DNA from: an uncultured Selenomonadales bacterium
GTDB lineage: Bacteria; Bacillota; Negativicutes; Selenomonadales; Selenomonadaceae
Direction: 5' to 3'
Assembly: GCA_937915885.1 (NCBI GenBank)
Contig: CALGGP010000229.1
Span: 1-50,446, forward strand
Length of the DNA stretch: 50,446 nt
Below the pieces are notes generated by a model that worked only from the letters and a program-made list of their open reading frames with translations, was not told the DNA's origin and ran no database searches. Shown here in pieces: positions 6,543 through 47,138 of the stretch. A program made the position numbers and the translations under genes. Position 1 is the stretch's first letter. Every line of letters begins with the position of its first letter.

Positions 6543-6589
6543 AAAAATCACCTCGGCGGCTTTATTCGACCGCCGCGCGGCAATTCCTT

Positions 6590-6618
6590 TTGACAGAGTC
6601 AATCGGTGAGTATATAAT
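6590..6618 (+). promoter_or_regulatory. Consensus sigma70/SigA-type promoter TTGACA-N17-TATAAT for the plus-strand operon
   Basis: TTGACA lies at 6590-6595 and TATAAT at 6613-6618, with exactly 17 nt between them. Confidence 0.6.
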
Positions 6619-6648: not shown

Positions 6649-7683
6649 TTGTCATCGAATCAGACGAAGAATAAATTCGACGAGCGCTATGATATCCGTC
6701 TGGCGCGCCTCGACGAGATCGACGAGCTTATGACGTTCATCGACACTTGGTGGCGCAAGGGGCATATCATGGCGCGCGACCGAGCGATGTTCGAGTACGA
6801 GTACGTGGTCGACGGCAGAGTGAACATGATGATTGCCAAAGAAAGAGCTACGAATAAAATCGTCGGCTTCAACGGCTTTTTGATGGCGTCGAAGAACAAA
6901 GACAAGCTCGACTTATGGGGCAGCATGCGGAAAGTCGTCCCGGGCTCGATGGGATTGCTCGGCTTGGAGATCGTCAAGCGCAAGGAGCGACTTTTGAACG
7001 CGCGCTCGTATTTGAGCATGGGCATCAATGAAGATACGACCGTTCCGATCAACAAATACATGCGGCACTATGACGACGTCGGCAAGCTGACGCATTTTTA
7101 TTGTCTGTCCGATCGTTCGGATTATCGGATCGCGAAGGTTGCTCACTATGAGTCTTTCGAGGGAGAACGCGACTATCGAGTGCAGCTCACTCCGATCAAA
7201 AATCTTGACGACCTTCGGCGCGTCTACGATTTTTCCTGCAGCGAGGACGCGATCCCGTATAAGGACGAGTGGTACATCAACCGGCGATTTTTGGAGCATC
7301 CGATTTTCGAGTATCAAGTTTTCGGATTGTCGGAGGACGACGGCAAAGCTCAAGCGCTGTTGGTTTGTCGCGAGCAACCTTACGGCGGCGCGACGGCATT
7401 GCGCATCGTTGATTACATCGGCAAGCCTCACCTGTTCGGAGGGCTGTCGGGCTTTTTGAGCGACGCTCTGAAAAAATATGAGTACGTTGATCTCTACTGC
7501 CGTAACTTCGACGAAGCGTCCGTTCGACGAGCGGGGCTGATCGAGTTGTCGGACGACGACATCAACATAATCCCGAATTATTTTCAACCGTACGTGGCAA
7601 AGAACGTCGATATTTGGTGCGCCACCCCCAAGGGTAAAGCGGTGTTCTTCAAAGCGGACGGCGATCAGGATCGTCCCAACTGA
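6649..7683 (+). CDS. Hypothetical protein, possibly a GNAT / FemAB-like acyltransferase fold
   Basis: The ORF is long and compositionally normal. The proposed start is TTG 6649, 7 nt after GGGAGGAG, because ATG 6625 falls at the predicted transcription start. The N-terminal region (YDIRLARLDEIDELMTFID...) is GNAT-like only by eye. The C-terminus ends FFKADGDQDRPN. Confidence 0.5.
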   Translation: MSSNQTKNKFDERYDIRLARLDEIDELMTFIDTWWRKGHIMARDRAMFEYEYVVDGRVNMMIAKERATNKIVGFNGFLMASKNKDKLDLWGSMRKVVPGSMGLLGLEIVKRKERLLNARSYLSMGINEDTTVPINKYMRHYDDVGKLTHFYCLSDRSDYRIAKVAHYESFEGERDYRVQLTPIKNLDDLRRVYDFSCSEDAIPYKDEWYINRRFLEHPIFEYQVFGLSEDDGKAQALLVCREQPYGGATALRIVDYIGKPHLFGGLSGFLSDALKKYEYVDLYCRNFDEASVRRAGLIELSDDDINIIPNYFQPYVAKNVDIWCATPKGKAVFFKADGDQDRPN

Positions 7684-7711: not shown

Positions 7712-7963
7712 ATGGACAACCTTAATGACAGCGTCCGCGCGGTGCTGATTCAAATTCGCAAGGAGATCGAGCCGCATCTCGACGAGACCGATCTCGTGAC
7801 GAACGGACTCATCGATTCGCTTGACATCATGAATTTGATCATGAAGCTCGAGGAAACGTTTGACATCGAGATCGATCCCGAAGACGTCGTAGCCGAAAAC
7901 TTTGACTCCGTCGCGGCGATCATTGCGCTCATCAACAAATGTCGAGGTCAATCCGATGTCTGA
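7712..7963 (+). CDS. Acyl/peptidyl carrier protein (DltC/ACP-like)
   Basis: It is an 83-aa acidic protein with the phosphopantetheine-attachment-type motif GLIDSLDIMNLI. An AGGAGAG RBS precedes it. Confidence 0.8.
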   Translation: MDNLNDSVRAVLIQIRKEIEPHLDETDLVTNGLIDSLDIMNLIMKLEETFDIEIDPEDVVAENFDSVAAIIALINKCRGQSDV

Positions 7964-8406
7964 GCGAAACGAACTCGCGCTCCACCACATTGGATTTGCC
8001 GTCCGCTCAATCGAAGAAACGCGTCCCGCTTTTGAAGCGTTGGGCGCCGAATTTTTTCATGCCTCCTCCGATCTCGAGCGCAATTTAAATTTTAGTTTCG
8101 CGCGTCTGAACGGGGGGGGGGGGCTCTGCAGTAGTTGAATTGGTTTCACCGCGAGACCCGGAGTTGCCATGCGCGGTTACTCGAATGGTTGAGAAGCAGG
8201 CGTGCGCGCCCTACCACATCTGTTTGAAGACAAACGACTTGGACGCGGAGCTGAAACGATTAAAGCCGTTGGGCTTCAAACGGATCAGCACTCCGCGCAC
8301 GACACATATCCATGGTCGCGCGACGCGAGCCTGTTTCCTGTTCAGCGCGACGATGGGTTTGGTCGAACTGATTATGGAGTGTGCAACGGATGAGCAATCC
8401 CAATGA
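7956..8406 (+). pseudogene. VOC (glyoxalase / methylmalonyl-CoA-epimerase-like) enzyme interrupted by a frameshift in a G12 tract
   Basis: The N-terminal part (LHHIGFAVRSIEE...) lies in the frame of ORF 7902..8138. The C-terminal part (ELVSP....PYHICLKTNDLD...GLVELIME) lies in the frame of ORF 8140..8406. G11 or G14 would give one continuous ORF of about 150 aa. Confidence 0.65.
8112..8123 (+). repeat. Homopolymer G12 inside the VOC gene
   Basis: Counted directly, and consistent with the translation NGGGGLCSS* of the upstream ORF. Confidence 0.9.
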
Positions 8407-9832
8407 AACGATTTTATCTCGACTGAAGTTTTTCGCCGACGAGACGCCCGACAAAATTTGTTTGATCGACGGCGCGCGCGGCGAGCAATGTACCTATAAA
8501 GATTTTTGGGCTCGAGTGCTGAGATTTGCGGCGATGGTCGAGCCAAATAAATTTTATCTGTTGAAGACGCGACAGACGATCGATCATTTGATCGCCTTCT
8601 ACGGAGTGCAGGCGGCGGGCTCGACAGCGATCCCCGTCGAGGCAACGACGTCGGACGAGCGGCTCAACGAGCTTGCCGATCGATTCCGCGCGGAGCTTCT
8701 GTCGAGCGATCCAATTACGAGCGCGGAGCCGATTGATTTTGTCGAGCCCGATCCCGAGCGAATTGCCTGCGTGATCTTGACGACGGGAACGACAGGCGTC
8801 AGCAAGGGCGTGATGTCGAGCTTTCGCTGTCGATTTTGCGGCGCGGACAATGTTCGATACTCTTATTCGATCACGCCCGATGACGTTGCATTGATCCCGC
8901 AGATGTTGTCGCACAGCGGCGGGCTCCGTCGTGTTGAGGCGATGCTCGTCAGCGGCGCAACAGCTGTGATCATGGGCGCCGTGATGCTGTTCGGAAATAT
9001 TTTCGGCGCCGTCAAAAAATATCATTGCAATATCCTGCAGTTCGTCCCGACGCAAGTCGCTCAAATCCTCCGTCGGGCACGAAAACTTTTGGTCGAAGTC
9101 GCTCCGCAATTGCGCATCGTCAGCGTCGGCAGCGCCGTCATTCCCGAGCACGACAAAGAACAACTTCGAGAACTTCTGCCGACCGTTCGCTTATTCAACG
9201 ACTTCGGCTCGACGGAGGCGTGCGGCTCGGCGTATTTCGAGTGGAGCGCTTTTGAGCCCAAGCCCGATTGCGTCGGCGTTGAGAGTATTCACTCGCGCAT
9301 AGTTTTTCTCGACGACGACGGCGCGGTACTCGAGCACACCGATCGCGATCACCCGGGCATTCTTGTGACCGAGGGCGGGACTTTGATGACGGGATATTTC
9401 GACGCGCCGGATTTGACGGCGGAGGTTCTTCGCGACGGTCGAGTGTTGTCGGCGGATTTGGGCTGGCGCGGTGCGGACGGCATGATTTACATTCTCGGAC
9501 GGCGCGACGACATGATTGTCAGCGGTGCCAACAAAATTTCGCCCGTCGAGCTCGAAAATATCATATCGCGGATTGCGGGCGTCAAAGAATGCGCCTGCGT
9601 CGGAGTGTCGGACAAAATTATGGGGCAAGTGCCGGTGATTTTTGTGGTGTGGGATCGAGAGCCGCTGCCGCTCGAGTGCTTGACGGCGGAGCTTGAGAAA
9701 CGCGTCGACCGATTCAAAATCCCGCGCCCCGAAAATATTCATGTCATTGACGCCCTGCCTCGGACGCCCGGCACGGGTAAAGTTATCAAACGCGAACTTA
9801 CAGAGAGGCTGATCAAAAATGAAAACGTATGA
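8390..9832 (+). CDS. AMP-dependent adenylate-forming enzyme (DltA / acyl-CoA synthetase superfamily)
   Basis: The core motifs are present: ILTTGTTGVSKGV (A3), GSTEACG (A5), GRRDDMIVSGANKISPVELE (A8) and PRTPGTGKVIKREL (A10). The start is taken at ATG 8390; GTG 8381 is also possible. Confidence 0.9.
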   Translation: MSNPNETILSRLKFFADETPDKICLIDGARGEQCTYKDFWARVLRFAAMVEPNKFYLLKTRQTIDHLIAFYGVQAAGSTAIPVEATTSDERLNELADRFRAELLSSDPITSAEPIDFVEPDPERIACVILTTGTTGVSKGVMSSFRCRFCGADNVRYSYSITPDDVALIPQMLSHSGGLRRVEAMLVSGATAVIMGAVMLFGNIFGAVKKYHCNILQFVPTQVAQILRRARKLLVEVAPQLRIVSVGSAVIPEHDKEQLRELLPTVRLFNDFGSTEACGSAYFEWSAFEPKPDCVGVESIHSRIVFLDDDGAVLEHTDRDHPGILVTEGGTLMTGYFDAPDLTAEVLRDGRVLSADLGWRGADGMIYILGRRDDMIVSGANKISPVELENIISRIAGVKECACVGVSDKIMGQVPVIFVVWDREPLPLECLTAELEKRVDRFKIPRPENIHVIDALPRTPGTGKVIKRELTERLIKNENV

Positions 9833-10683
9833 AATTTTTTGGACGGGAGGCTTTGATTCAACGCTTCGGGTCGTTCAATTGTCGCGTTACCCTATCAAAA
9901 TTCAACCGGTGTTTTGCAAAGGAGTTGCCGCCGACATCCGCAAAAGCGAGTTCTACGAGCTGCGAGCCATCAAACAGATATCAGCTTTGTTGCGCACCAA
10001 ACCCGGCGTCAAGGCTGAACTTTTGCCGCTGAAGATTGTTTATCGTTCGTCGGCCCCCCCCCCATTTGGATCAAGACTTCGTGTATGAACCTCTTCCGAA
10101 GGATCATGGGGTCGCCGTCGCCTTCCGCAAAATTTATATCTCAATGATGGCTCCGAGGCGCAACCAACTTGCGACCGGACGCGGGGTGCTCAACGCCGTG
10201 AATGTTGATCTTTATATCGATGCGCAGTACCAATGGCTTGCCGCTTATGCCAACAGTCGTGAGGCGCCCGTCGAGATCGGAATCACGGCGAGGTACGTAA
10301 ATAAATTTCTGGCGGCAATCGGCGGCGACGATGCAATCGATGAGATTGACAACGGTCTTTTCAAGCAATACGTTTTGAGTAAGGAAAGATGTAAATCTGC
10401 CGACGGCTATAAAATTTTCGGGGGCTTTGCGTTTTCGTTTTACGATGCGCCGCTCAAGCCCGAGTTGGTGAAAGAATATAGGCGTCTCGATTGCGAGGAC
10501 ATAATGAATTTGACGTGGTTCTGTTACGATCCCATTGACGGTGAACCATGCGGGCAGTGTTGGACTTGCGTGCATACTTATCGTGACGGCATCACAAATC
10601 GTTTCAGCCCCGCCGCACTCGAACGCTATCATAAACGCGAAAAGGAGTTGAGCTCAACTCCGAACAATGAGGAGGATACTTAG
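9819..10683 (+). pseudogene. QueC-like PP-loop ATPase, paralogue 1, interrupted by a frameshift in a C10 tract
   Basis: It has an N-terminal PP-loop WTGGFDST and a C-terminal Cys cluster CGQCWTCVHTYRDG (the QueC-type CGxCxxCxxRxxG). The ORFs 9819..10088 and 10036..10683 join if the C-tract is 9 or 12 long. Confidence 0.7.
10054..10063 (+). repeat. Homopolymer C10 inside QueC-like paralogue 1
   Basis: Counted directly. Both flanking ORF translations (SSAPPPF / RRPPPHL) run through it. Confidence 0.9.
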
Positions 10684-10686
10684 ACG

Positions 10687-11538
10687 ATGAAAATATATAA
10701 CGTCCTTTGGTCTGGCGGTGTCGACAGCACGTTTGTCGTGACACAGCTGTCGCAATACCCCGTGGTGATCCGACCGTTTTACATCAAGGGACAAACCTTT
10801 CGACTGTCGGAACCGCAGGAGTTGTCGGCGATCAAAGCGATCCGTGAGTTGCTGATTGCGGACGAGCGGACGAAGGCGGAGATCATGGAGCCGGAGATAA
10901 TCGAGGCGAGCGATCCGCGCATAAAGGATCGCGAAGTCGTCAAGGCTTGGCGTCGAATTTACATGCGATTGTTGGAGCGATATAAAGCCGAGCACAATGG
11001 AAAATTGCCGGCGGCGGGCAGCCAACAAATTTATGCGGATGGCGCCTATATTTCCCCGCAGTATGCATCGTTCGCCTCCTTAACCAAAAACTTGAACTCG
11101 GATTTTGAGATCGGAATTATTTATGCCGATCATGTTTCGTCGGCTTTTAATTCTTCGGATTCGATTTTGATCGAGTACGATGAACTGACTGAAAGGAAAG
11201 TTCTTCGGCTACGCGATGATATCTCGGACAAAGACTCTTACACTTTGTTTAAAGATATGCGGCTCCCGATTGCGGGACAAGGCATGGATAAACGCGATGT
11301 TTGGAAGTGGTACTCCGATCACGGCTATCTGATGGTGCGCTCGAAAACAAATTTCTGTCAAGCTCCCATTTCCACGGGGGGGGGGGCCGTCGAGCCTTGC
11401 GGAGTCTGCACACCGTGTATCTGCGTGATTCGAGAAGGTGTGCTTGAGCCCTTCACCGAAGCCGGTCTCGCTCGCTATCGCGACTACGAAGAAAATCATG
11501 AGAGGGAGCCTGAGCGTTTCAGACTTAAAGGTTTTTGA
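10687..11538 (+). CDS. QueC-like PP-loop ATPase, paralogue 2 (intact)
   Basis: It has the PP-loop WSGGVDST, the C-terminal CGVCTPCICVIREG motif and a GAGGAGGA RBS. It contains an in-frame G11 tract that encodes TGGGA immediately before the Cys cluster. Confidence 0.75.
   Translation: MKIYNVLWSGGVDSTFVVTQLSQYPVVIRPFYIKGQTFRLSEPQELSAIKAIRELLIADERTKAEIMEPEIIEASDPRIKDREVVKAWRRIYMRLLERYKAEHNGKLPAAGSQQIYADGAYISPQYASFASLTKNLNSDFEIGIIYADHVSSAFNSSDSILIEYDELTERKVLRLRDDISDKDSYTLFKDMRLPIAGQGMDKRDVWKWYSDHGYLMVRSKTNFCQAPISTGGGAVEPCGVCTPCICVIREGVLEPFTEAGLARYRDYEENHEREPERFRLKGF
11376..11386 (+). repeat. Homopolymer G11 inside QueC-like paralogue 2 (in frame)
   Basis: Counted directly. The translation is ISTGGGAVEPCG. 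Confidence 0.9.
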
Positions 11539-11556
11539 ACGAAGGAATTGCTGAGC

Positions 11557-12267
11557 ATGAATTTTGATCAATCGGACATCACAATCTCACACAATCGTCG
11601 GGTGAAGTATTTTCCGCGCGGCGAATTGTTGTGCCTCGAGCGGAGCGAACTTACGATGAATAAGGTTGCCGACTCCGGCACTTACCTTAAATATTTTCCC
11701 GAGGCTGTCTACATCGAAGACGCCGACGGAAGTCTCTACGGCATATTGACTAACGGCGACGTGTTGAAATCGCTGAACTTCGGCGAGCCGTTGATCAATC
11801 GGAAATTTTTTCGATTGGACGACGCATCGAAAATCCGCGCGGATTTTTTTCAAGAGTTCTTTGACCTGCATCGATCGGTCAGATGCATCCCGTTCGTCGA
11901 AAATGATCGGCTCGTCGGTGAGTGGCGGCTCCTCATCGGCGAGGAAGATTTTGAATCGAAAATGTGTTGGGAGCCGATCCAATCAATTGCCGATAAACGT
12001 TTAAGCGAGTTGGAGGGCAACGCCGTCGTTTGCGATCAAAAATCTTTTCGGGCGCGTCTGATCGAAAGTATTCGCGACGGACAGGATGACGGCAATAAAA
12101 TTATTCCGTTGTACGATGTCTATATGGAGTGCCTCATTCGTTTTTTGACGGGCAAATTTCGAGAGCATCACATTCCCTTCTTTTATGTCGAGGCGCCGTC
12201 GACAAAAAAAAATTCTGCACTCCGCCGATTGGATACAAGATGTTCTCCGTCGAAATCTCCGCACTGA
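11557..12267 (+). CDS. CBS-domain-like protein, probably the N-terminal part of a larger frameshifted gene
   Basis: The segments AVYIEDADGSLYGILTNGDVLKSL and CIPFVENDRLVGEWRLL resemble a CBS pair. The ORF leaves frame at the A9 tract and ends 55 nt later. With A8 it would read straight into ORF 12185..13609. Confidence 0.5.
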   Translation: MNFDQSDITISHNRRVKYFPRGELLCLERSELTMNKVADSGTYLKYFPEAVYIEDADGSLYGILTNGDVLKSLNFGEPLINRKFFRLDDASKIRADFFQEFFDLHRSVRCIPFVENDRLVGEWRLLIGEEDFESKMCWEPIQSIADKRLSELEGNAVVCDQKSFRARLIESIRDGQDDGNKIIPLYDVYMECLIRFLTGKFREHHIPFFYVEAPSTKKNSALRRLDTRCSPSKSPH

Positions 12268-13609
12268 GGATATTGCCCGCGACGAGTCTCAATTGCTCGA
12301 TCTCTACGATGACGACGCCGATCGGGCGTTTATGCGCGAGACGGAGTATGTCAATTTTGTTTATGTGGATCGGGGATATTATTTTAATCTGGCGGATTAC
12401 GACGGCAAGGGCTTGCATGTGGTCGACGGCAGGCGATTGACGACGGACGTTCCGAAAAATCCCGCGCGGAGGATTCATATCTTCGGGCAATGCACGGCGC
12501 GCGGCTCGCATGTGATCGACAGTCACACCATCGAAAGCTGCCTCCAACGAAAACTCAATGCCGCCTGCCCCGGCACATGGGAGGTTGTCAATTACGGTGT
12601 GGCGGGCAGAACCGGCGGCGATATGAACGATCTGAATTACATTCTGTGCTCGGATTTCCGCGCGGGCGACGTAGTCATTTGTCTTGCCGCCTATCGCGAT
12701 TCGACCGTGGAGCTTTTGAAAACATTCGGCGCGATTTGTCTTGAAACTTCGAGTGTGCTTGCCGCGCCGACGAACGTTGCGAAGTTGGGGCGTTGGTTTT
12801 TGGATATTCCGCTCCACATCAATCATCGGGCGTGCGAATTGATTGCGGATCATTTGTTTGCGTCGCTCGACGATCGGCTCGAGCTGTCGTCTCATTCGAT
12901 CGATGATGCAGCCCGCGAGCGGGTTTCATTTTATGACGAGTTCATGCCCGCCGTCGTCAACAGTCGAGCGTTTAAAAATTATATCGAGCGACTCAAAAAT
13001 ATTTTGGGTGATCAGATTATCAATAGGGGGGGGGGTGGATCATGCGGCGCGATCGTAATGAATTGCAATCCATTCACGCTCGGGCATCGATATTTGATCG
13101 AAGAGGCGGCGAAAACCGTCGAGACTTTGATCGTGTTCGTCGTGAGAGAGGATCGCTCGAAATTCCATTTCGCGGATCGGATCAGGTTGGTGCGCGAGGG
13201 CGTCAAAGATTTGACGAACGTCATCGTGGAATCGAGCGGGCAATTCATGATCTCGACGGAAACCTTCCCCGAGTATTTTTTCAAGAGTCAACTGCAGGAA
13301 GTAGCGATCGATTCATCTTATGATGTGAGGCTGTTCGGAAAATACATTGCACCGGCGCTTGGGATCACGATTCGATTCGTCGGCGAGGAACCGTTTGATG
13401 CTGTCACTTCGTCATACAATCGGACAATGCATGAAATTTTGCCGGAGTGCGGAGTCAAGGTCGTCGAAATTCCGCGCAAGAAGGTGAACGGCGAAGTGAT
13501 CAGCGCATCGAAGGTACGGGCGCTGTTGAAGGAAGGAAAAATGGAGGAATTACGGGCTTTCGTTCCGTCGCCGACATATGAGTATCTGCGTCAAAATTGG
13601 CGAAACTAG
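12185..13609 (+). CDS. Two-domain protein: N-terminal SGNH/GDSL-like region (weak) plus C-terminal CitC-type ([citrate lyase] ligase-like) nucleotidyltransferase domain
   Basis: The C-terminus GAIVMNCNPFTLGHRYLIEEAA...VFVV.ED.S.F.F..R..LV matches the cytidylyltransferase-like domain of citrate lyase ligase. The middle region (RIHIFGQCTARGSH...INHRACELIADHL) is SGNH-like only by eye. No RBS precedes ATG 12185. An in-frame G10 tract encodes the RGGGG linker between the domains. Confidence 0.7.
   Translation: MSRRRRQKKILHSADWIQDVLRRNLRTEDIARDESQLLDLYDDDADRAFMRETEYVNFVYVDRGYYFNLADYDGKGLHVVDGRRLTTDVPKNPARRIHIFGQCTARGSHVIDSHTIESCLQRKLNAACPGTWEVVNYGVAGRTGGDMNDLNYILCSDFRAGDVVICLAAYRDSTVELLKTFGAICLETSSVLAAPTNVAKLGRWFLDIPLHINHRACELIADHLFASLDDRLELSSHSIDDAARERVSFYDEFMPAVVNSRAFKNYIERLKNILGDQIINRGGGGSCGAIVMNCNPFTLGHRYLIEEAAKTVETLIVFVVREDRSKFHFADRIRLVREGVKDLTNVIVESSGQFMISTETFPEYFFKSQLQEVAIDSSYDVRLFGKYIAPALGITIRFVGEEPFDAVTSSYNRTMHEILPECGVKVVEIPRKKVNGEVISASKVRALLKEGKMEELRAFVPSPTYEYLRQNWRN
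12204..12212 (+). repeat. Homopolymer A9 at the junction of ORFs 11548..12267 and 12185..13609
   Basis: Counted directly. The two frames read STKKNSAL and RQKKILHS through it. Confidence 0.9.
13026..13035 (+). repeat. Homopolymer G10 in the inter-domain linker of the CitC-like protein (in frame)
   Basis: Counted directly. The translation is INRGGGGSCGAIV. Confidence 0.9.
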
Positions 13610-14426
13610 TCGGTGTCGAAACCAATCTTAGTGACGGCGTTGGTCGACAAGACTTTGTCGGTGAGGGGGGCGGATTGAGCGATCATTGCAGGAGAAATTT
13701 CATCGGAAGGCAATTCCCCTCCGATCAGCAACGGGCGTATGTCAACGGTGCCGGGCTCGGGCGAAGTGACGGCGACATCGCGAACTAACGATAGGCGCCA
13801 TAAGAACCAGCGACACTGAGCGACTCGGGGGTTTCATAAATGCGCTCGCGAAGGGCATCATCACTTTCGATGTCGGCGCCTCCGTCGGACGTGGTGATGT
13901 TGACTGCCGATTGCAGGAACGGTTGAGGATCGACTATCTGATCGATCTCTCCGACATCGTACCAATTCCCCGATGGTCCCCGCGCCGTGCACGTCGCCCG
14001 AGCCGGCATCGACAGCGTATTCTTCGGTATCGTCAAATCCTCGTCGAGCGCGAAATATACTCCGTCGCCCGCCGTAAATCTCACTCCGCGCGGAATTACC
14101 GTCGCCTTGCTCCTCAACGCCGACAGCGTCAATTCCATCGTCACCGTCGCCGCCGTCGCCTCCAGCCGCGTCACTCCCACCAGCGCTCCCAGATGATCAA
14201 GGTAATCGCCCGTCGAGTACGCCAGCAAATTCATCTTCGCGCATTGATCGATCAATAAGCGCTGCTGTTGGATCACTGCCTCCACCCCGCGCAAAAATAA
14301 TCGCAACGGATCGGCGCGCGCCAGCTTCCGCCCGAGCAGTTCTTCTACCGTTGATGTCACCTGCAGGTCGAGTTCGTCGATGTCGGCGTCCGCGAATGTC
14401 AACGATGGTAATTGTGTCAGTTTCAT
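13606..14426 (-). pseudogene. Baseplate J-like protein (P2 gpJ / XkdT family), frameshifted and C-terminally truncated
   Basis: The N-terminal 213 aa end ...ESLSVAGSYGAYR*. A second frame continues RDVAVTSPEPGTVDIRPLLIGGELPSDEISPAMIAQSAPLTDKVLSTNAVTKIGFDTD*, which is typical baseplate-J C-terminal sequence. About 10 aa are missing at the joint, and about 60 aa are missing at the end. Confidence 0.75.
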
Positions 14427-15252: not shown

Positions 15253-15573
15253 TCAGCCTCCCACTATCACGTCCTCCGAGCCTTCTACTATCTCGCCCTT
15301 CTCACAACATTTTATGCATCTGGTTTTCACCCCCACATACGACAACTCACGCCCGTTCACCGTCACCGTCGAGCTCCCTCCGCGCACATAAAACATTCCT
15401 CGGTGCGGGCAATTGCACAGCCCTATATCGCCCCGGCTGATTGCTCCTCGTCCATTGATAACCACATTTGCACTTCCCGATCGACAGACGCCTTCCCGTT
15501 CGTGTGAACAGCATTTATGTCCGTCGTCGCATCGCCCCCGCTCATGATCTCCAACTCTGATTGCTCCAGGCAT
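15253..15573 (-). CDS. PAAR-like spike-tip protein
   Basis: Three PAAR-type repeats are present (GAIRVGD, GAISRGD and ...VNGRELSYVG), the protein is Cys/His-rich, and an AAGGAGG RBS lies 7 nt upstream of ATG 15573. Confidence 0.65.
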   Translation of the reverse strand: MPGAIRVGDHERGRCDDGHKCCSHEREGVCRSGSANVVINGRGAISRGDIGLCNCPHRGMFYVRGGSSTVTVNGRELSYVGVKTRCIKCCEKGEIVEGSEDVIVGG

Positions 15574-16310
15574 GATCGTGCCTCCTTTATTCGTCGTTCG
15601 CATATCGCCACGAACGGCGCGTGATTTTCAAAGCCCACGAAGTGTCGGTTGGTGTTGACGCACGCGACTGCCGTCGTGCCACTGCCCATGCACGCGTCCA
15701 ACACCAATTCCCCCTCGTTCGTGTACGTCTTTATCAGATACTCACACAGCCCCGTCGGCTTCTGTGTCGAATGAACCGAATAACTTCCCGTCACATTCAC
15801 CTGCAAAAAATAATCTATGATATCGATAGGATTGCGCCGTCCGTCCGATCGATCCGTCGTCGTCCGTTTTTTTGTCCCGTAATTCTGTGACGGTCGAAGT
15901 TCACTGTCTCTGTTGGCGAAGTACGGGCGTGAGTACCACCATTGCGGATTGTATGTCGGCAGCTTCCTGTAAAAGACGAGGATATTTTCATGAGCGCGGA
16001 GCGGCATCTTGTTCGCATTCAAAAACCCCACCGGATTCGACTTGTGCCATATCCATTCATAGCGGAACATCTTCCGATTGGCATTGATCAGATCGACCGC
16101 AAACGGCAATTGGCTGAAAATGACGATCGCCGCATTGTGTTTTGCGACCCTAAGGAATTGTTCCCACATCGGCTCGAGCGGCAACCGTCGGTCCCAGAAA
16201 TTTGCAGTCGACCCGTACGGCGGATCGCAGAGTACCATATCCACCGAGCCGTCGGGTATCCGATCCATTCCCGAGATGCAGTCCTCACACCAAATTTTGT
16301 CTATGTCCAT
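15423..16310 (-). CDS. DNA methyltransferase, beta-class, DPPY motif (probably N6-adenine), orphan
   Basis: The catalytic motif VLCDPPYG lies N-terminal, with STQKP and the AdoMet motif LDACMGSGTT C-terminal. The last 50 or so codons overlap the PAAR gene and look like non-conserved read-through. Confidence 0.8.
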   Translation of the reverse strand: MDIDKIWCEDCISGMDRIPDGSVDMVLCDPPYGSTANFWDRRLPLEPMWEQFLRVAKHNAAIVIFSQLPFAVDLINANRKMFRYEWIWHKSNPVGFLNANKMPLRAHENILVFYRKLPTYNPQWWYSRPYFANRDSELRPSQNYGTKKRTTTDRSDGRRNPIDIIDYFLQVNVTGSYSVHSTQKPTGLCEYLIKTYTNEGELVLDACMGSGTTAVACVNTNRHFVGFENHAPFVAICERRIKEARSCLEQSELEIMSGGDATTDINAVHTNGKASVDREVQMWLSMDEEQSAGAI

Positions 16311-45592: not shown

Positions 45593-47077
45593 TCAGTACA
45601 TGCCGCTGACACCTTCGCTCATGCTGATGAAAATATTTTTCTTCTGAGTGTAAGCGTTGAGAATCATCTTATGCGTCTCGCGCCCGATGCCCGACTTCTT
45701 ATATCCGCCGAACGGCGAGCCCGCCGGCAGATCGTTGTAAGCGTTGATCCACATGCGCCCCGTCTCGATCGCCCGCGCCACGCGCAACGCCCGATTGATG
45801 TCCTTCGTCCAGACCGCGCCGCCCAAGCCGTATTCGCTGTCGTTGGCCATCGCTACAACTTCGTCCTCGTCGTGGAACTTGATCACGACCGCCACCGGTC
45901 CGAAAATCTCTTCGCATGCCACCGTCATTTTATTATTGACGTCCGCTATCAACGTCGGCTGCATGAACGCTCCGTTTTCGCCGCCTTCGACCACAGCCGC
46001 CGCGCCGCCGGTGATCACCTGCGCGCCTTCCTTCCGACCGATCTCGACGTACTTCAAAATCTTTTCGAGCTGCCGTTTATCGATCTGGCTGCCCATCTGC
46101 GTATCGCGCTCCCAAGGCAGACCGACTTTGACGCTCTCGAATTTTTTCTTGAGCGCGTCGACGAATTTATCATAGAACGTGTCCTGAACGAAAATACGCG
46201 ACCCCGCACAGCACACCTGCCCTTGATTGAAGAGAATCCCCATGCAGGCGCCGTCGATCGCCTTTTCAAAATTACAATCGTCGAAGTAAATGTTCGCCGA
46301 CTTGCCGCCCAGCTCCAGCGTCGCGGGGATCAATTTCTTCGCCGCCGCCTCCGCCACGGAATATCCGACCTCCGTCGAGCCGGTGAACGCCAGCTTCCGA
46401 ATGTCGGGATGGTCGAGAATGTATTGACCGGTTGAGCCGCCGCCACCCGTGATGATATTGAGCACGCCCGCAGGCAATTCGTTTTGAATCAGTTTCATAA
46501 ACTCGAGGATCGACAGTGAGGTCGTCGACGACGGTTTGAAGATGATGCAGTTGCCCGCTCCGAGCGCCGGCGCCAACTTCCACGCGCCCATCAGGAAGGG
46601 GAAATTCCACGGGACGATTTGTCCGACCACGCCGATCGGCTCGCTCAAGATGAGGCTCAATTTGTCGTCGGCAAGCATCGACGCCGAGCCTTCCTCCGCG
46701 CGGATCACGCCCGCGAAGTAACGGAAATGATCGGAGCTCAACGGCACGTCGGCGTTCATCGTCTCGCGGATGGGTTTGCCGTTGTCGAGCGTCTCGATCA
46801 TCGCAAGGTGCTCGGCGTTGGCGTCAATGATGTCGGCGATCTTGAGAAGGATCGTCGCGCGCTCGACCACGCCGACTTTCTTCCACGCGGGGAATGCCGC
46901 CCACGCCGCTTTGACAGCATCATCTACGTCCGCCTTCGACGCCGCCGCGCACTCCGCCATGAACTCGCCGTTCGACGGATTGTAGACCTTGAAAGTTTTG
47001 CCGCCCTCGGCGTCGCGCCACTCGCCGTTGATGTAGAGTTGGTAGCGATCCTGCCAAATTTTTTTCACGTCGGACAT
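45593..47077 (-). CDS. NAD(P)-dependent aldehyde dehydrogenase
   Basis: It is about 494 aa with ALDH motifs FTGSTEVG, ELGGKSA and QGQVCCAGSR (catalytic Cys). The start is at MSDVKK, which has an AAGGAG RBS. Confidence 0.9.
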   Translation of the reverse strand: MSDVKKIWQDRYQLYINGEWRDAEGGKTFKVYNPSNGEFMAECAAASKADVDDAVKAAWAAFPAWKKVGVVERATILLKIADIIDANAEHLAMIETLDNGKPIRETMNADVPLSSDHFRYFAGVIRAEEGSASMLADDKLSLILSEPIGVVGQIVPWNFPFLMGAWKLAPALGAGNCIIFKPSSTTSLSILEFMKLIQNELPAGVLNIITGGGGSTGQYILDHPDIRKLAFTGSTEVGYSVAEAAAKKLIPATLELGGKSANIYFDDCNFEKAIDGACMGILFNQGQVCCAGSRIFVQDTFYDKFVDALKKKFESVKVGLPWERDTQMGSQIDKRQLEKILKYVEIGRKEGAQVITGGAAAVVEGGENGAFMQPTLIADVNNKMTVACEEIFGPVAVVIKFHDEDEVVAMANDSEYGLGGAVWTKDINRALRVARAIETGRMWINAYNDLPAGSPFGGYKKSGIGRETHKMILNAYTQKKNIFISMSEGVSGMY

Positions 47078-47107
47078 GTAATTCACTCCTTCGATTTTGT
47101 TGATCAC

Positions 47108-47138
47108 ATTATACATTGTTTGAGTCGATCCGTGTCAA
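47108..47138 (-). promoter_or_regulatory. Candidate promoter TTGACA-N19-TATAAT upstream of the aldehyde dehydrogenase
   Basis: On the minus strand TTGACA lies at 47138-47133 and TATAAT at 47113-47108. The spacer is 2 nt longer than optimal. Confidence 0.4.

Follow-up and report, generated by a model that had tools for sequence, protein, structure and literature searches.

Introduction

Homopolymer contingency loci are textbook features of a few host-adapted pathogens, such as Campylobacter, Helicobacter, Neisseria, and Haemophilus. The flagellin-glycosylation locus of Campylobacter jejuni contains genes for an acyl carrier protein (ACP) and an adenylating enzyme. Poly-G tracts lie in accessory nonulosonic-acid-modifying genes of this locus, e.g., Cj1295, and slippage within them alters the glycan (PMC3068675). 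In the lgtABCDE locus of Neisseria gonorrhoeae, poly-G tracts are found in lgtA, lgtC, and lgtD, and their independent shifts give combinatorial surface glycans (PMC2192423). The sortase-pilus G-tract of Bifidobacterium breve is OFF in the reference genotype, and productive lengths arise by replication slippage; its length spectrum was measured by maximum-depth sequencing (PMC9187656). With regard to gene content, ACP, 3-oxoacyl-ACP reductase, AMP-synthetase, LuxE, and LuxC form a conserved part of the group II flagellin glycosylation islands of Aeromonas (PMC7874193). Here, we analyzed a stretch of 50,446 bases (hereafter referred to as the window) from a metagenome-assembled genome (MAG) of an uncultured Selenomonadales bacterium (contig CALGGP010000229.1 of assembly GCA_937915885.1), in which an operon starting at position 6590 carries five long homopolymer tracts. 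With moderate confidence, we regard it as a homopolymer contingency operon for the combinatorial ON/OFF switching of surface-glycan-modifying genes, and this switching would be reversible and frequent within a population.

Five Homopolymer Tracts in One Operon

A direct scan of the window located all five tracts exactly where the initial annotation had placed them:

8112-8123, plus strand: G12 tract, inside the VOC-fold gene
10054-10063, plus strand: C10 tract, inside PP-loop ATPase paralogue 1
11376-11386, plus strand: G11 tract, inside PP-loop ATPase paralogue 2
12204-12212, plus strand: A9 tract, inside the large ligase-type gene
13026-13035, plus strand: G10 tract, in the C-terminal ligase domain of the same large gene

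The four G/C runs of 10-12 bases are packed into 4.9 kb and all reside within coding sequence of a single operon of ~7 kb. Elsewhere in the 50,446 bases, the longest G/C runs are two G7 (4500 and 39255), and the earlier claim that no other run reaches 8 bases therefore holds. A G 10-mer was matched seven times over both strands together, compared to 0.03 expected matches, and none of 100 dinucleotide-preserving shuffles reached seven. The 524 kb of non-Helicobacter loci that we fetched contain one G/C run of at least 8 bases in total. The window has a GC content of 55.6%; the value of ~52%, which had been ascribed to the genome, applies to the operon only. No other simple-sequence arrays of note were found in the window.

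Glycine runs at the tracts are written exclusively with GGG, a codon that accounts for 10% of the glycine codons in the intact operon genes and for 23% window-wide, and the remaining triple-glycine peptides of the window are encoded by GGC or GGT. Homopolymers of 7-8 bases also occur within long open reading frames (ORFs) of the window, and the frames are open in all of these. The operon shows three of the traits by which contingency loci are recognized, i.e., intragenic G/C runs of about 8 bases or more, an excess over chance, and genes that a one-unit change would toggle between a full-length and a truncated product. The existence of the tracts, their clustering, their codon choice, and the construction of one of them by substitutions (see below) are hard to explain other than by selection for mutability.

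Effects of the Tracts on the Reading Frames

The operon comprises eight ORFs that represent seven ancestral genes, with the A9 gene annotated as two ORFs:

6590-6618, plus strand: sigma-70-type promoter TTGACA-17-TATAAT, 12/12 consensus positions
6649-7683, plus strand: gene 1, 344 amino acids (aa), TTG start, ribosome-binding site GGGAGGAG; intact, signature gene of the cassette shared with other bacteria
7712-7963, plus strand: acyl carrier protein, 83 aa; intact, Pfam PP-binding E = 2.9e-7, DSLD serine motif
7956-8406, plus strand: VOC-fold gene (glyoxalase/methylmalonyl-CoA-epimerase-like); split by G12, stops at 8138
8390-9832, plus strand: AMP-forming acyl/aminoacyl ligase, 480 aa; intact, Pfam AMP-binding E = 9e-41 plus AMP-binding_C
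9819-10683, plus strand: PP-loop ATPase paralogue 1 ("QueC-like"); split by C10, stops at 10088
10687-11538, plus strand: PP-loop ATPase paralogue 2, 283 aa; intact
11557-13609, plus strand: large ligase-type gene, ~683 aa in its ancestral form; split by A9 into 11557-12267 and 12185/12293-13609

The perfect promoter coincides with the operon start proposed before and points away from a 5'-nucleotidase gene on the minus strand (ATG near 6543). Throughout the operon, consecutive genes overlap or almost touch, as for the ligase, whose start (8390) overlaps the VOC stop, and premature termination would therefore be expected to uncouple the translation of downstream genes. In the assembled state, the VOC gene (G12), PP-loop 1 (C10), and the large enzyme (A9) are OFF, PP-loop 2 (G11) is ON, and G10 is in frame. 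Repaired translations and homologue alignments agreed with the frame effects that had been assigned to each of the five tracts. Across ~3.4 kb, the three broken genes contain no second stop or frameshift, so any inactivation must be either very recent or reversible.

While G12 leaves the VOC gene OFF, a G11 or G14 tract gives an intact protein of 149/150 aa. The G11-repaired product of 149 aa matches Pfam Glyoxalase_4 (PF13669) over residues 10-120, spanning the tract (E = 8e-16; 58.7 bits versus a cut-off of 27); for the methylmalonyl-CoA epimerase equivalog TIGR03081, it scores 34 bits versus 115. In comparison with an 84%-identical relative (L011), the whole VOC gene appears as a clean gene-sized indel (window 7921-8381 versus L011 2706-2726), and the junction to the ligase start, GTGCAACG(G/A)ATGAGCAATCC, is kept in both sequences.

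PP-loop paralogue 1 is OFF with C10 and would be ON with C9 or C12. Its C9-repaired product (287 aa) aligns over residues 1-281 with homologues of paralogue 2 at 28% identity, and carries the PP-loop motif WTGGFDST and a C-terminal CxxC..C cluster. Paralogue 2 has the motif WSGGVDST and 58 homologues with 54-66% identity. Its AlphaFold model (pLDDT 79.7) retrieved MnmA, YcfA, QueC, and Cap9 as the best PDB folds in Foldseek, with low TM-scores of 0.29-0.67 depending on normalisation, and a PDB sequence search with the PP-loop family returned nothing significant. The QueC profile PF06508 was matched by paralogue 1 with 17.7 bits (cut-off 22) over 35 residues only and was not matched by paralogue 2. 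Motifs, cysteine cluster, and fold support membership in the PP-loop ATPase superfamily; the former label "QueC-like" is apt in this broad sense, but not for QueC proper. QueC-like proteins also occur in anti-phage defence systems (QatC, Cap9). We rejected this assignment, as PADLOC gave only a weak PP-loop match (E = 0.001) and no partner genes. The PP-loop family adjoins or lies near an ACP gene in every examined locus that carries it, and sheep-rumen metagenomes (L035-L037) contain a minimal cassette of an 88-aa ACP-like gene, a PP-loop enzyme (54% identity to paralogue 2), and a GNAT acetyltransferase.

The G11 tract of paralogue 2 is in frame and encodes the three glycines of STGGGAV, just upstream of the invariant EPCGxCxxC. 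At these columns, 17 homologues read IHxDGTW with no change in length. The tract replaces the conserved xDGT and was therefore built by substitutions, not by insertion. A one-base shift in either direction removes the EPCGxCxxC cysteine cluster. An inserted tail or a poly-G read artefact, which we also considered as a source of the tracts, was discarded: the tracts replace homologous residues without a change in length and recur in a second assembly.

In the large gene, A9 corresponds to OFF, and A8 fuses 11557-12267 with 12185-13609 into a protein of 683 aa, as the initial annotation had predicted. With this repaired protein as query, an exhaustive HMMER search retrieved single homologues of 671-726 aa that are continuous across the junction, including P0085 (query 50-680) and P0088 (query 20-681); a word-indexed homology search with the same fusion returned no match. 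In the A8 frame, the block ..P.(A/S)SKI.., which is conserved among the homologues, also reappears after an invariant proline. Continuity through the junction and the restored block identify 11557-13609 as one ancestral gene split by A9, and all of its closest homologues have it undivided. The gene combines a CBS-like N-terminus, a middle domain without assignment, and a C-terminal adenylyltransferase domain of the citrate-lyase-ligase type. The last matches Pfam Citrate_ly_lig (PF08218) with E = 4.3e-70 over profile positions 2-182/182, but remains below the cut-off of the CitC equivalog TIGR00124 (219.8 versus 262.1 bits); the match is confined to positions 120-330 of this model. The first 480 aa show no relationship to CitC, and we noted no cit gene in the scan of the window genes. 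The name CBS, used before for the N-terminal ORF, is based on a match to PF00571 below threshold (14.5 versus 24 bits, E = 0.047, 23 residues). The G10 tract encodes four glycines in a variable linker right before the invariant GAIVMNCNPF.

Runs of at least nine A or T are transcriptional-slippage sites in bacteria, e.g., in insertion sequence elements and in the poly(A) tracts of endosymbionts, and A9 is plausibly such a site as well. Recoding would then offer another explanation for the split frames: RNA polymerase slippage at A9, and possibly at the G/C runs, or ribosomal frameshifting would yield some full-length protein, and the genes would be constitutively leaky. At the precise position of A9, a run of A8 would give back a conserved single gene, and A9 has the same length in two assemblies. 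We nevertheless consider recoding very improbable. There is no conserved recoding signal and no frameshift at the A9 site in the homologues examined, and the DNA-level difference between G9 and G10 described below would be left unexplained. Moreover, G/C runs are better documented as switches on the DNA level (PMC2192423, PMC3068675, PMC9187656).

Tract Lengths in Other Assemblies

We compared tract lengths by exact-sequence look-ups of the predicted products in a collection of 15 billion proteins. The G10 product of the large gene (P0229, 438 aa) is recorded on the 50,446-bp contig. Otherwise identical proteins ending in INRGGVDHAARS*, which is exactly the ending predicted for a truncating G9 tract, were found on a 24,066-bp contig (P0081; Logan and ENA) and on a 4,770-bp contig (P0230; NCBI), and an orphan C-terminal fragment (P0231) is likewise recorded on the 24,066-bp contig. 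The G9 and G10 forms thus stem from records on three contigs and at least two assemblies, and this difference of one base suggests hypermutability, although it could be technical. A length difference between assemblies is recorded at G10, but not at C10 (P0233), A9 (P0079), and G11 (P0001), each of which was found on two contigs with the same length in the second assembly; the ligase protein was likewise found on two contigs. The longest contig listed for the paralogue 2 protein measures 50,446 bp, and the window therefore represents a complete contig. Look-ups were without match for the VOC products of G9, G10, G11, G13, G14, and G15, for the C9 and C11 products of PP-loop 1, and for the G10 and G12 products of PP-loop 2. 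The same applies to the A8 and A10 versions and to C-terminal fragments, with the G9 forms of the G10 tract as the sole exception. A scan for the flank pattern of the G10 site gave 0 matches in JGI metagenomes and IMG/VR. The N-terminal fragment produced by G12 (P0232) is recorded on the window contig only, and the second assembly (Logan) carries gene 1 on a separate contig of 5,306 bp. This assembly therefore appears to break at or near G12.

Homopolymers of at least 10 bases are error-prone on every sequencing platform. It is therefore conceivable that the tracts are real and their lengths were miscalled in sequencing or assembly, in which case the true lengths would keep the frames open and the G9/G10 difference would be an error. 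The sole difference between assemblies concerns a single tract and amounts to one base, G12 seems to be impassable for the second assembly, and the contig is metagenome-derived, with conflicting taxonomic hints (see below) and doubtful bin quality. However, C10, A9, and G11 were called alike by two assemblies, and the open frames at the 7-8-base homopolymers in long ORFs argue against general indel noise. Miscalls would also have to comprise three independent errors, each of exactly the size that breaks the frame. We thus rate this explanation as quite unlikely. Even if it were correct, G/C runs of this length are hypermutable anyway, so the recorded state would change, not the nature of the locus.

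Predicted Function of the Operon

Gene 1, ACP, AMP-ligase, and a PP-loop enzyme form the core of the operon, and this cassette is found inside nonulosonic-acid clusters of other bacteria. In the closest cassette relatives, gene 1, ACP, ligase, and PP-loop 2 share 61-69% protein identity with the operon; their contigs have 38-45% GC, and one is labelled Lachnospiraceae. For the ligase, identity to the cassette ligases in L001-L010 and L014 is 63-69%. In L001-L006, the cassette directly follows genes for DegT, an NTP-transferase, an ATP-grasp protein, NeuB, a NeuC-type epimerase, a CMP-transferase, and a polysaccharide deacetylase, and in L001-L010, genes for SDR, LuxE, and LuxC follow or interleave with it. 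P0080 (44%), which is most similar to the split gene, is encoded at the end of a Pse-type nonulosonic-acid cluster (PseB/PseC/NeuB) with PseB-like, CMP-transferase, radical SAM, DegT, and NeuB genes (L039). An accessory module of ACP and adenylating enzyme, a trait of nonulosonic-acid loci, is present in the operon by its PP-binding and AMP-binding domains. From these neighbourhoods, the operon probably encodes an ACP-dependent pathway by which a surface sugar of the nonulosonic-acid type, in flagellin or another surface glycan, receives a substituent of acyl or amidino type that the pathway makes or attaches. Three genes, i.e., VOC, PP-loop 1, and the CitC-type gene, seem to be lineage-specific additions to the cassette, and these three additions are exactly the genes that are now OFF. 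Since the gene families sit in surface-glycan clusters elsewhere, the analogy to Campylobacter is functional as well as formal. The initial annotation had proposed combinatorial switching of several steps of one pathway; the tracts, the frame logic, and the families known from glycan clusters speak for the switching, and the switched genes may belong to one pathway.

Gene 1 had no match in Pfam, NCBIfam, PDB, or PADLOC, and its AlphaFold model, built from three sequences, was unusable (pLDDT 37). Its relatives with 62-100% identity share 165 invariant columns, and the protein ends in an invariant FFKADGDQDRPN. Orthologues reach 90% identity in L011-L013 and 63% in L001 and L014, and more distant ones (27-48%) occur in Succinivibrio, Lachnospiraceae, Methanomicrobium mobile, and Helicobacter cinaedi/bilis. 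Gene 1 is thus an uncharacterised family tied to sugar-modification clusters. In the rumen methanogen M. mobile (L018, 10001-11014), the family member (43% identity) is followed by an AMP-ligase-like gene, which suggests inter-domain transfer of part of the cassette.

Genomic Surroundings

The right boundary of the operon is formed by a phage gene:

13609-14426, minus strand: baseplate-J gene, frameshifted and truncated, covering only profile positions 2-139/255 of Pfam Baseplate_J

Its frameshift lies near 13785, not at a homopolymer, and its continuation ends at ~13609, i.e., exactly at the stop codon of the last operon gene. The gene belongs to a myovirus-like prophage (13.6-45.3 kb) with terminases, portal, capsid, sheath, tape measure, gpD, gpU, and repressor. 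Beyond the cut in baseplate-J, no tail-fibre, lysis, or integrase genes follow. The "Firmicutes-style prophage next door" of the initial annotation does adjoin the operon, as a myovirus-like element that is a defective, truncated remnant; its junction with the operon looks like a deletion or recombination scar. A gene for a DNA N6/N4 methyltransferase (15423-16310, minus strand) lies inside the tail/baseplate module of the prophage, between the gpD-like and gpU-like genes.

On the other side, the named relatives of comM (63-1661) at 73-77% are Clostridia, Clostridiales, and Aristaeellaceae MAGs. The aldehyde dehydrogenase (45593-47116), on the contrary, is at least 90% identical to a protein of a "Selenomonadaceae bacterium" MAG (MBR1580420.1). 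These conflicting signals could reflect horizontal transfer, mis-binning of the Selenomonadaceae MAG, or a chimeric contig. From ComM, we take the host to be a Christensenellales-like member of the Clostridia and reject an origin in the Selenomonadaceae, with the conflicting signal of the aldehyde dehydrogenase kept in mind. In comparison with L040, a relative whose comM is 86.6% identical, similarity ends at window position 1458, inside the 3' end of the gene, and downstream of comM, the relatives differ from the window and carry dprA-topA (L038) or other genes. The operon accordingly lies in a variable island, and the ~43 kb following comM have the appearance of an island that integrated at or within the 3' end of this gene.

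Switching or Gene Decay

Several observations weigh against a contingency operon. Three of the four switchable genes are OFF in the consensus, which fits a loss of function too, and no ON version of the VOC gene, of PP-loop 1, or of the fused gene was found among the 15 billion catalogued proteins. C10, A9, and G11 did not vary between the two assemblies, and A9 is not statistically unusual in length, with a second, intergenic A9 (45449) and six A8/T8 runs elsewhere in the window. Orthologous cassettes with 63-69% protein identity have no tract at all, and the VOC gene is missing in L011, whose ACP and ligase genes lie directly next to each other. Furthermore, no nonulosonic-acid core genes (NeuB/PseI, NeuC, NeuA), flagellin genes, or maf genes were found among the window genes scanned.

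Some of these points would also be expected from recent gene decay, in which the VOC gene, PP-loop 1, and the large ligase are being lost within an island next to a decaying prophage and the frameshifts are fixed and non-adaptive. Apart from the three OFF genes and the lack of catalogued ON products, a fourth lesion (G9) is present in other assemblies, the broken genes are those that are missing from the conserved cassette elsewhere (the VOC gene even in the 84% relative), the adjoining baseplate-J gene is itself frameshifted and truncated, and the region is unlike the comM neighbourhood of relatives. Decay, however, offers no explanation for the origin of four G/C runs of 10-12 bases in one operon, given that the other 45 kb contain none of at least 8 bases. 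Nor does it account for the tract in PP-loop 2, which arose by replacing conserved residues in a gene that is still in frame, or for the lack of a second lesion over ~3.4 kb. We therefore regard decay as unlikely.

If the locus is a contingency operon, the strong promoter at 6590 would drive all operon genes, and the gain or loss of one base by replication slippage would switch each of the four tract-bearing genes from a full-length to a truncated product or back. Up to 16 expression combinations, and hence different glycan decorations, would then coexist in a population, a variety that could be useful against phages and against recognition by hosts or predators. OFF states would probably also lower the translation of downstream genes by polarity.

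Comparison with Known Systems

Like the flagellin-glycosylation locus of C. jejuni, the operon has several intragenic tracts, and its gene families occur in NeuB/PseB-type clusters elsewhere. In contrast to this epsilonproteobacterium with 30% GC, the presumed clostridial host has ~55% GC, the window lacks nonulosonic-acid core, flagellin, and maf genes among those scanned, and the switching is putative. With the gonococcal lgtABCDE genes, it shares the short, operon-like locus and tracts in several coding frames. There, the switched genes encode glycosyltransferases and switching is experimentally proven, whereas here, a VOC enzyme, PP-loop ATPases, and an adenylyltransferase-type ligase would be switched alongside an ACP. 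The intragenic G-tract of B. breve, which is a Gram-positive commensal of the gut with a moderate to high GC content, is comparable as well; it is, however, a single tract per pilus cluster and affects a protein adhesin, as opposed to several tracts and glycan modification in the window.

Clusters of H. cinaedi and H. bilis share the gene-1 family (39-40%) in a sugar-modification setting with polysaccharide deacetylase, FabZ-like genes, radical SAM, and SDR. Tracts of C8-C13 and G11-G15 lie close to or inside genes of these clusters, whose hosts come from a group in which homopolymer phase variation is already known. The Helicobacter tracts occur in different genes than those of the operon and were therefore acquired independently. 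In H. cinaedi L020, the polysaccharide-deacetylase ORF has a C10 on its 5' side, and the radical-SAM gene contains a G11 in frame. The tracts in the gene-1 clusters of enterohepatic Helicobacter (L020 9102 and 12723; L021 2607; L022 5417-9930) also include A13.

The module of ACP and AMP-ligase is shared with the group II islands of Aeromonas, where it is embedded in pseudaminic-acid loci (PMC7874193). Unlike these islands, the operon is devoid of SDR, LuxE, and LuxC and instead contains the VOC and CitC-type genes as well as a second PP-loop gene; among the features described for the Aeromonas islands, homopolymer tracts do not appear. Within the Clostridia, a mouse-gut Lachnospiraceae MAG (MGBC111450, L026 17688) has an in-frame G10 close to the 5' end of a gene for an MBOAT/AlgI-like O-acyltransferase, right after a NeuC-type epimerase, which makes it a second candidate homopolymer switch in a clostridial glycan locus.

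A broader proposal, to which we give somewhat less than even credence, is that the operon is a Campylobacter-style system of moderately GC-rich gut/rumen Clostridia (Christensenellales-like), in which five independent switches would shuffle the decoration of a nonulosonic-acid-type glycan. Such a system would have evolved independently in a Gram-positive anaerobic commensal, with phage pressure as a possible driver in view of the defective prophage next to the operon. Gut commensals would then use simple-sequence-repeat phase variation of glycans more widely than the literature, with its focus on pathogens, would suggest, and the G10 of L026 points in the same direction. It would also name gene 1, ACP-linked PP-loop ATPases, and the CBS-like/CitC-type ligase as variable functions in glycan decoration. 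In practical terms, frameshifted tract genes of MAGs are usually written off as errors or pseudogenes, and the comparison of independent assemblies is a cheap check. Our literature search yielded no paper linking Selenomonas with homopolymeric phase variation, and an operon with five tracts would extend the mechanism to a lineage and a GC range in which it is hardly documented. In comparison with the described systems, the mechanism is classical, and the host lineage, the number of tracts per operon, and the enzyme families are unusual.

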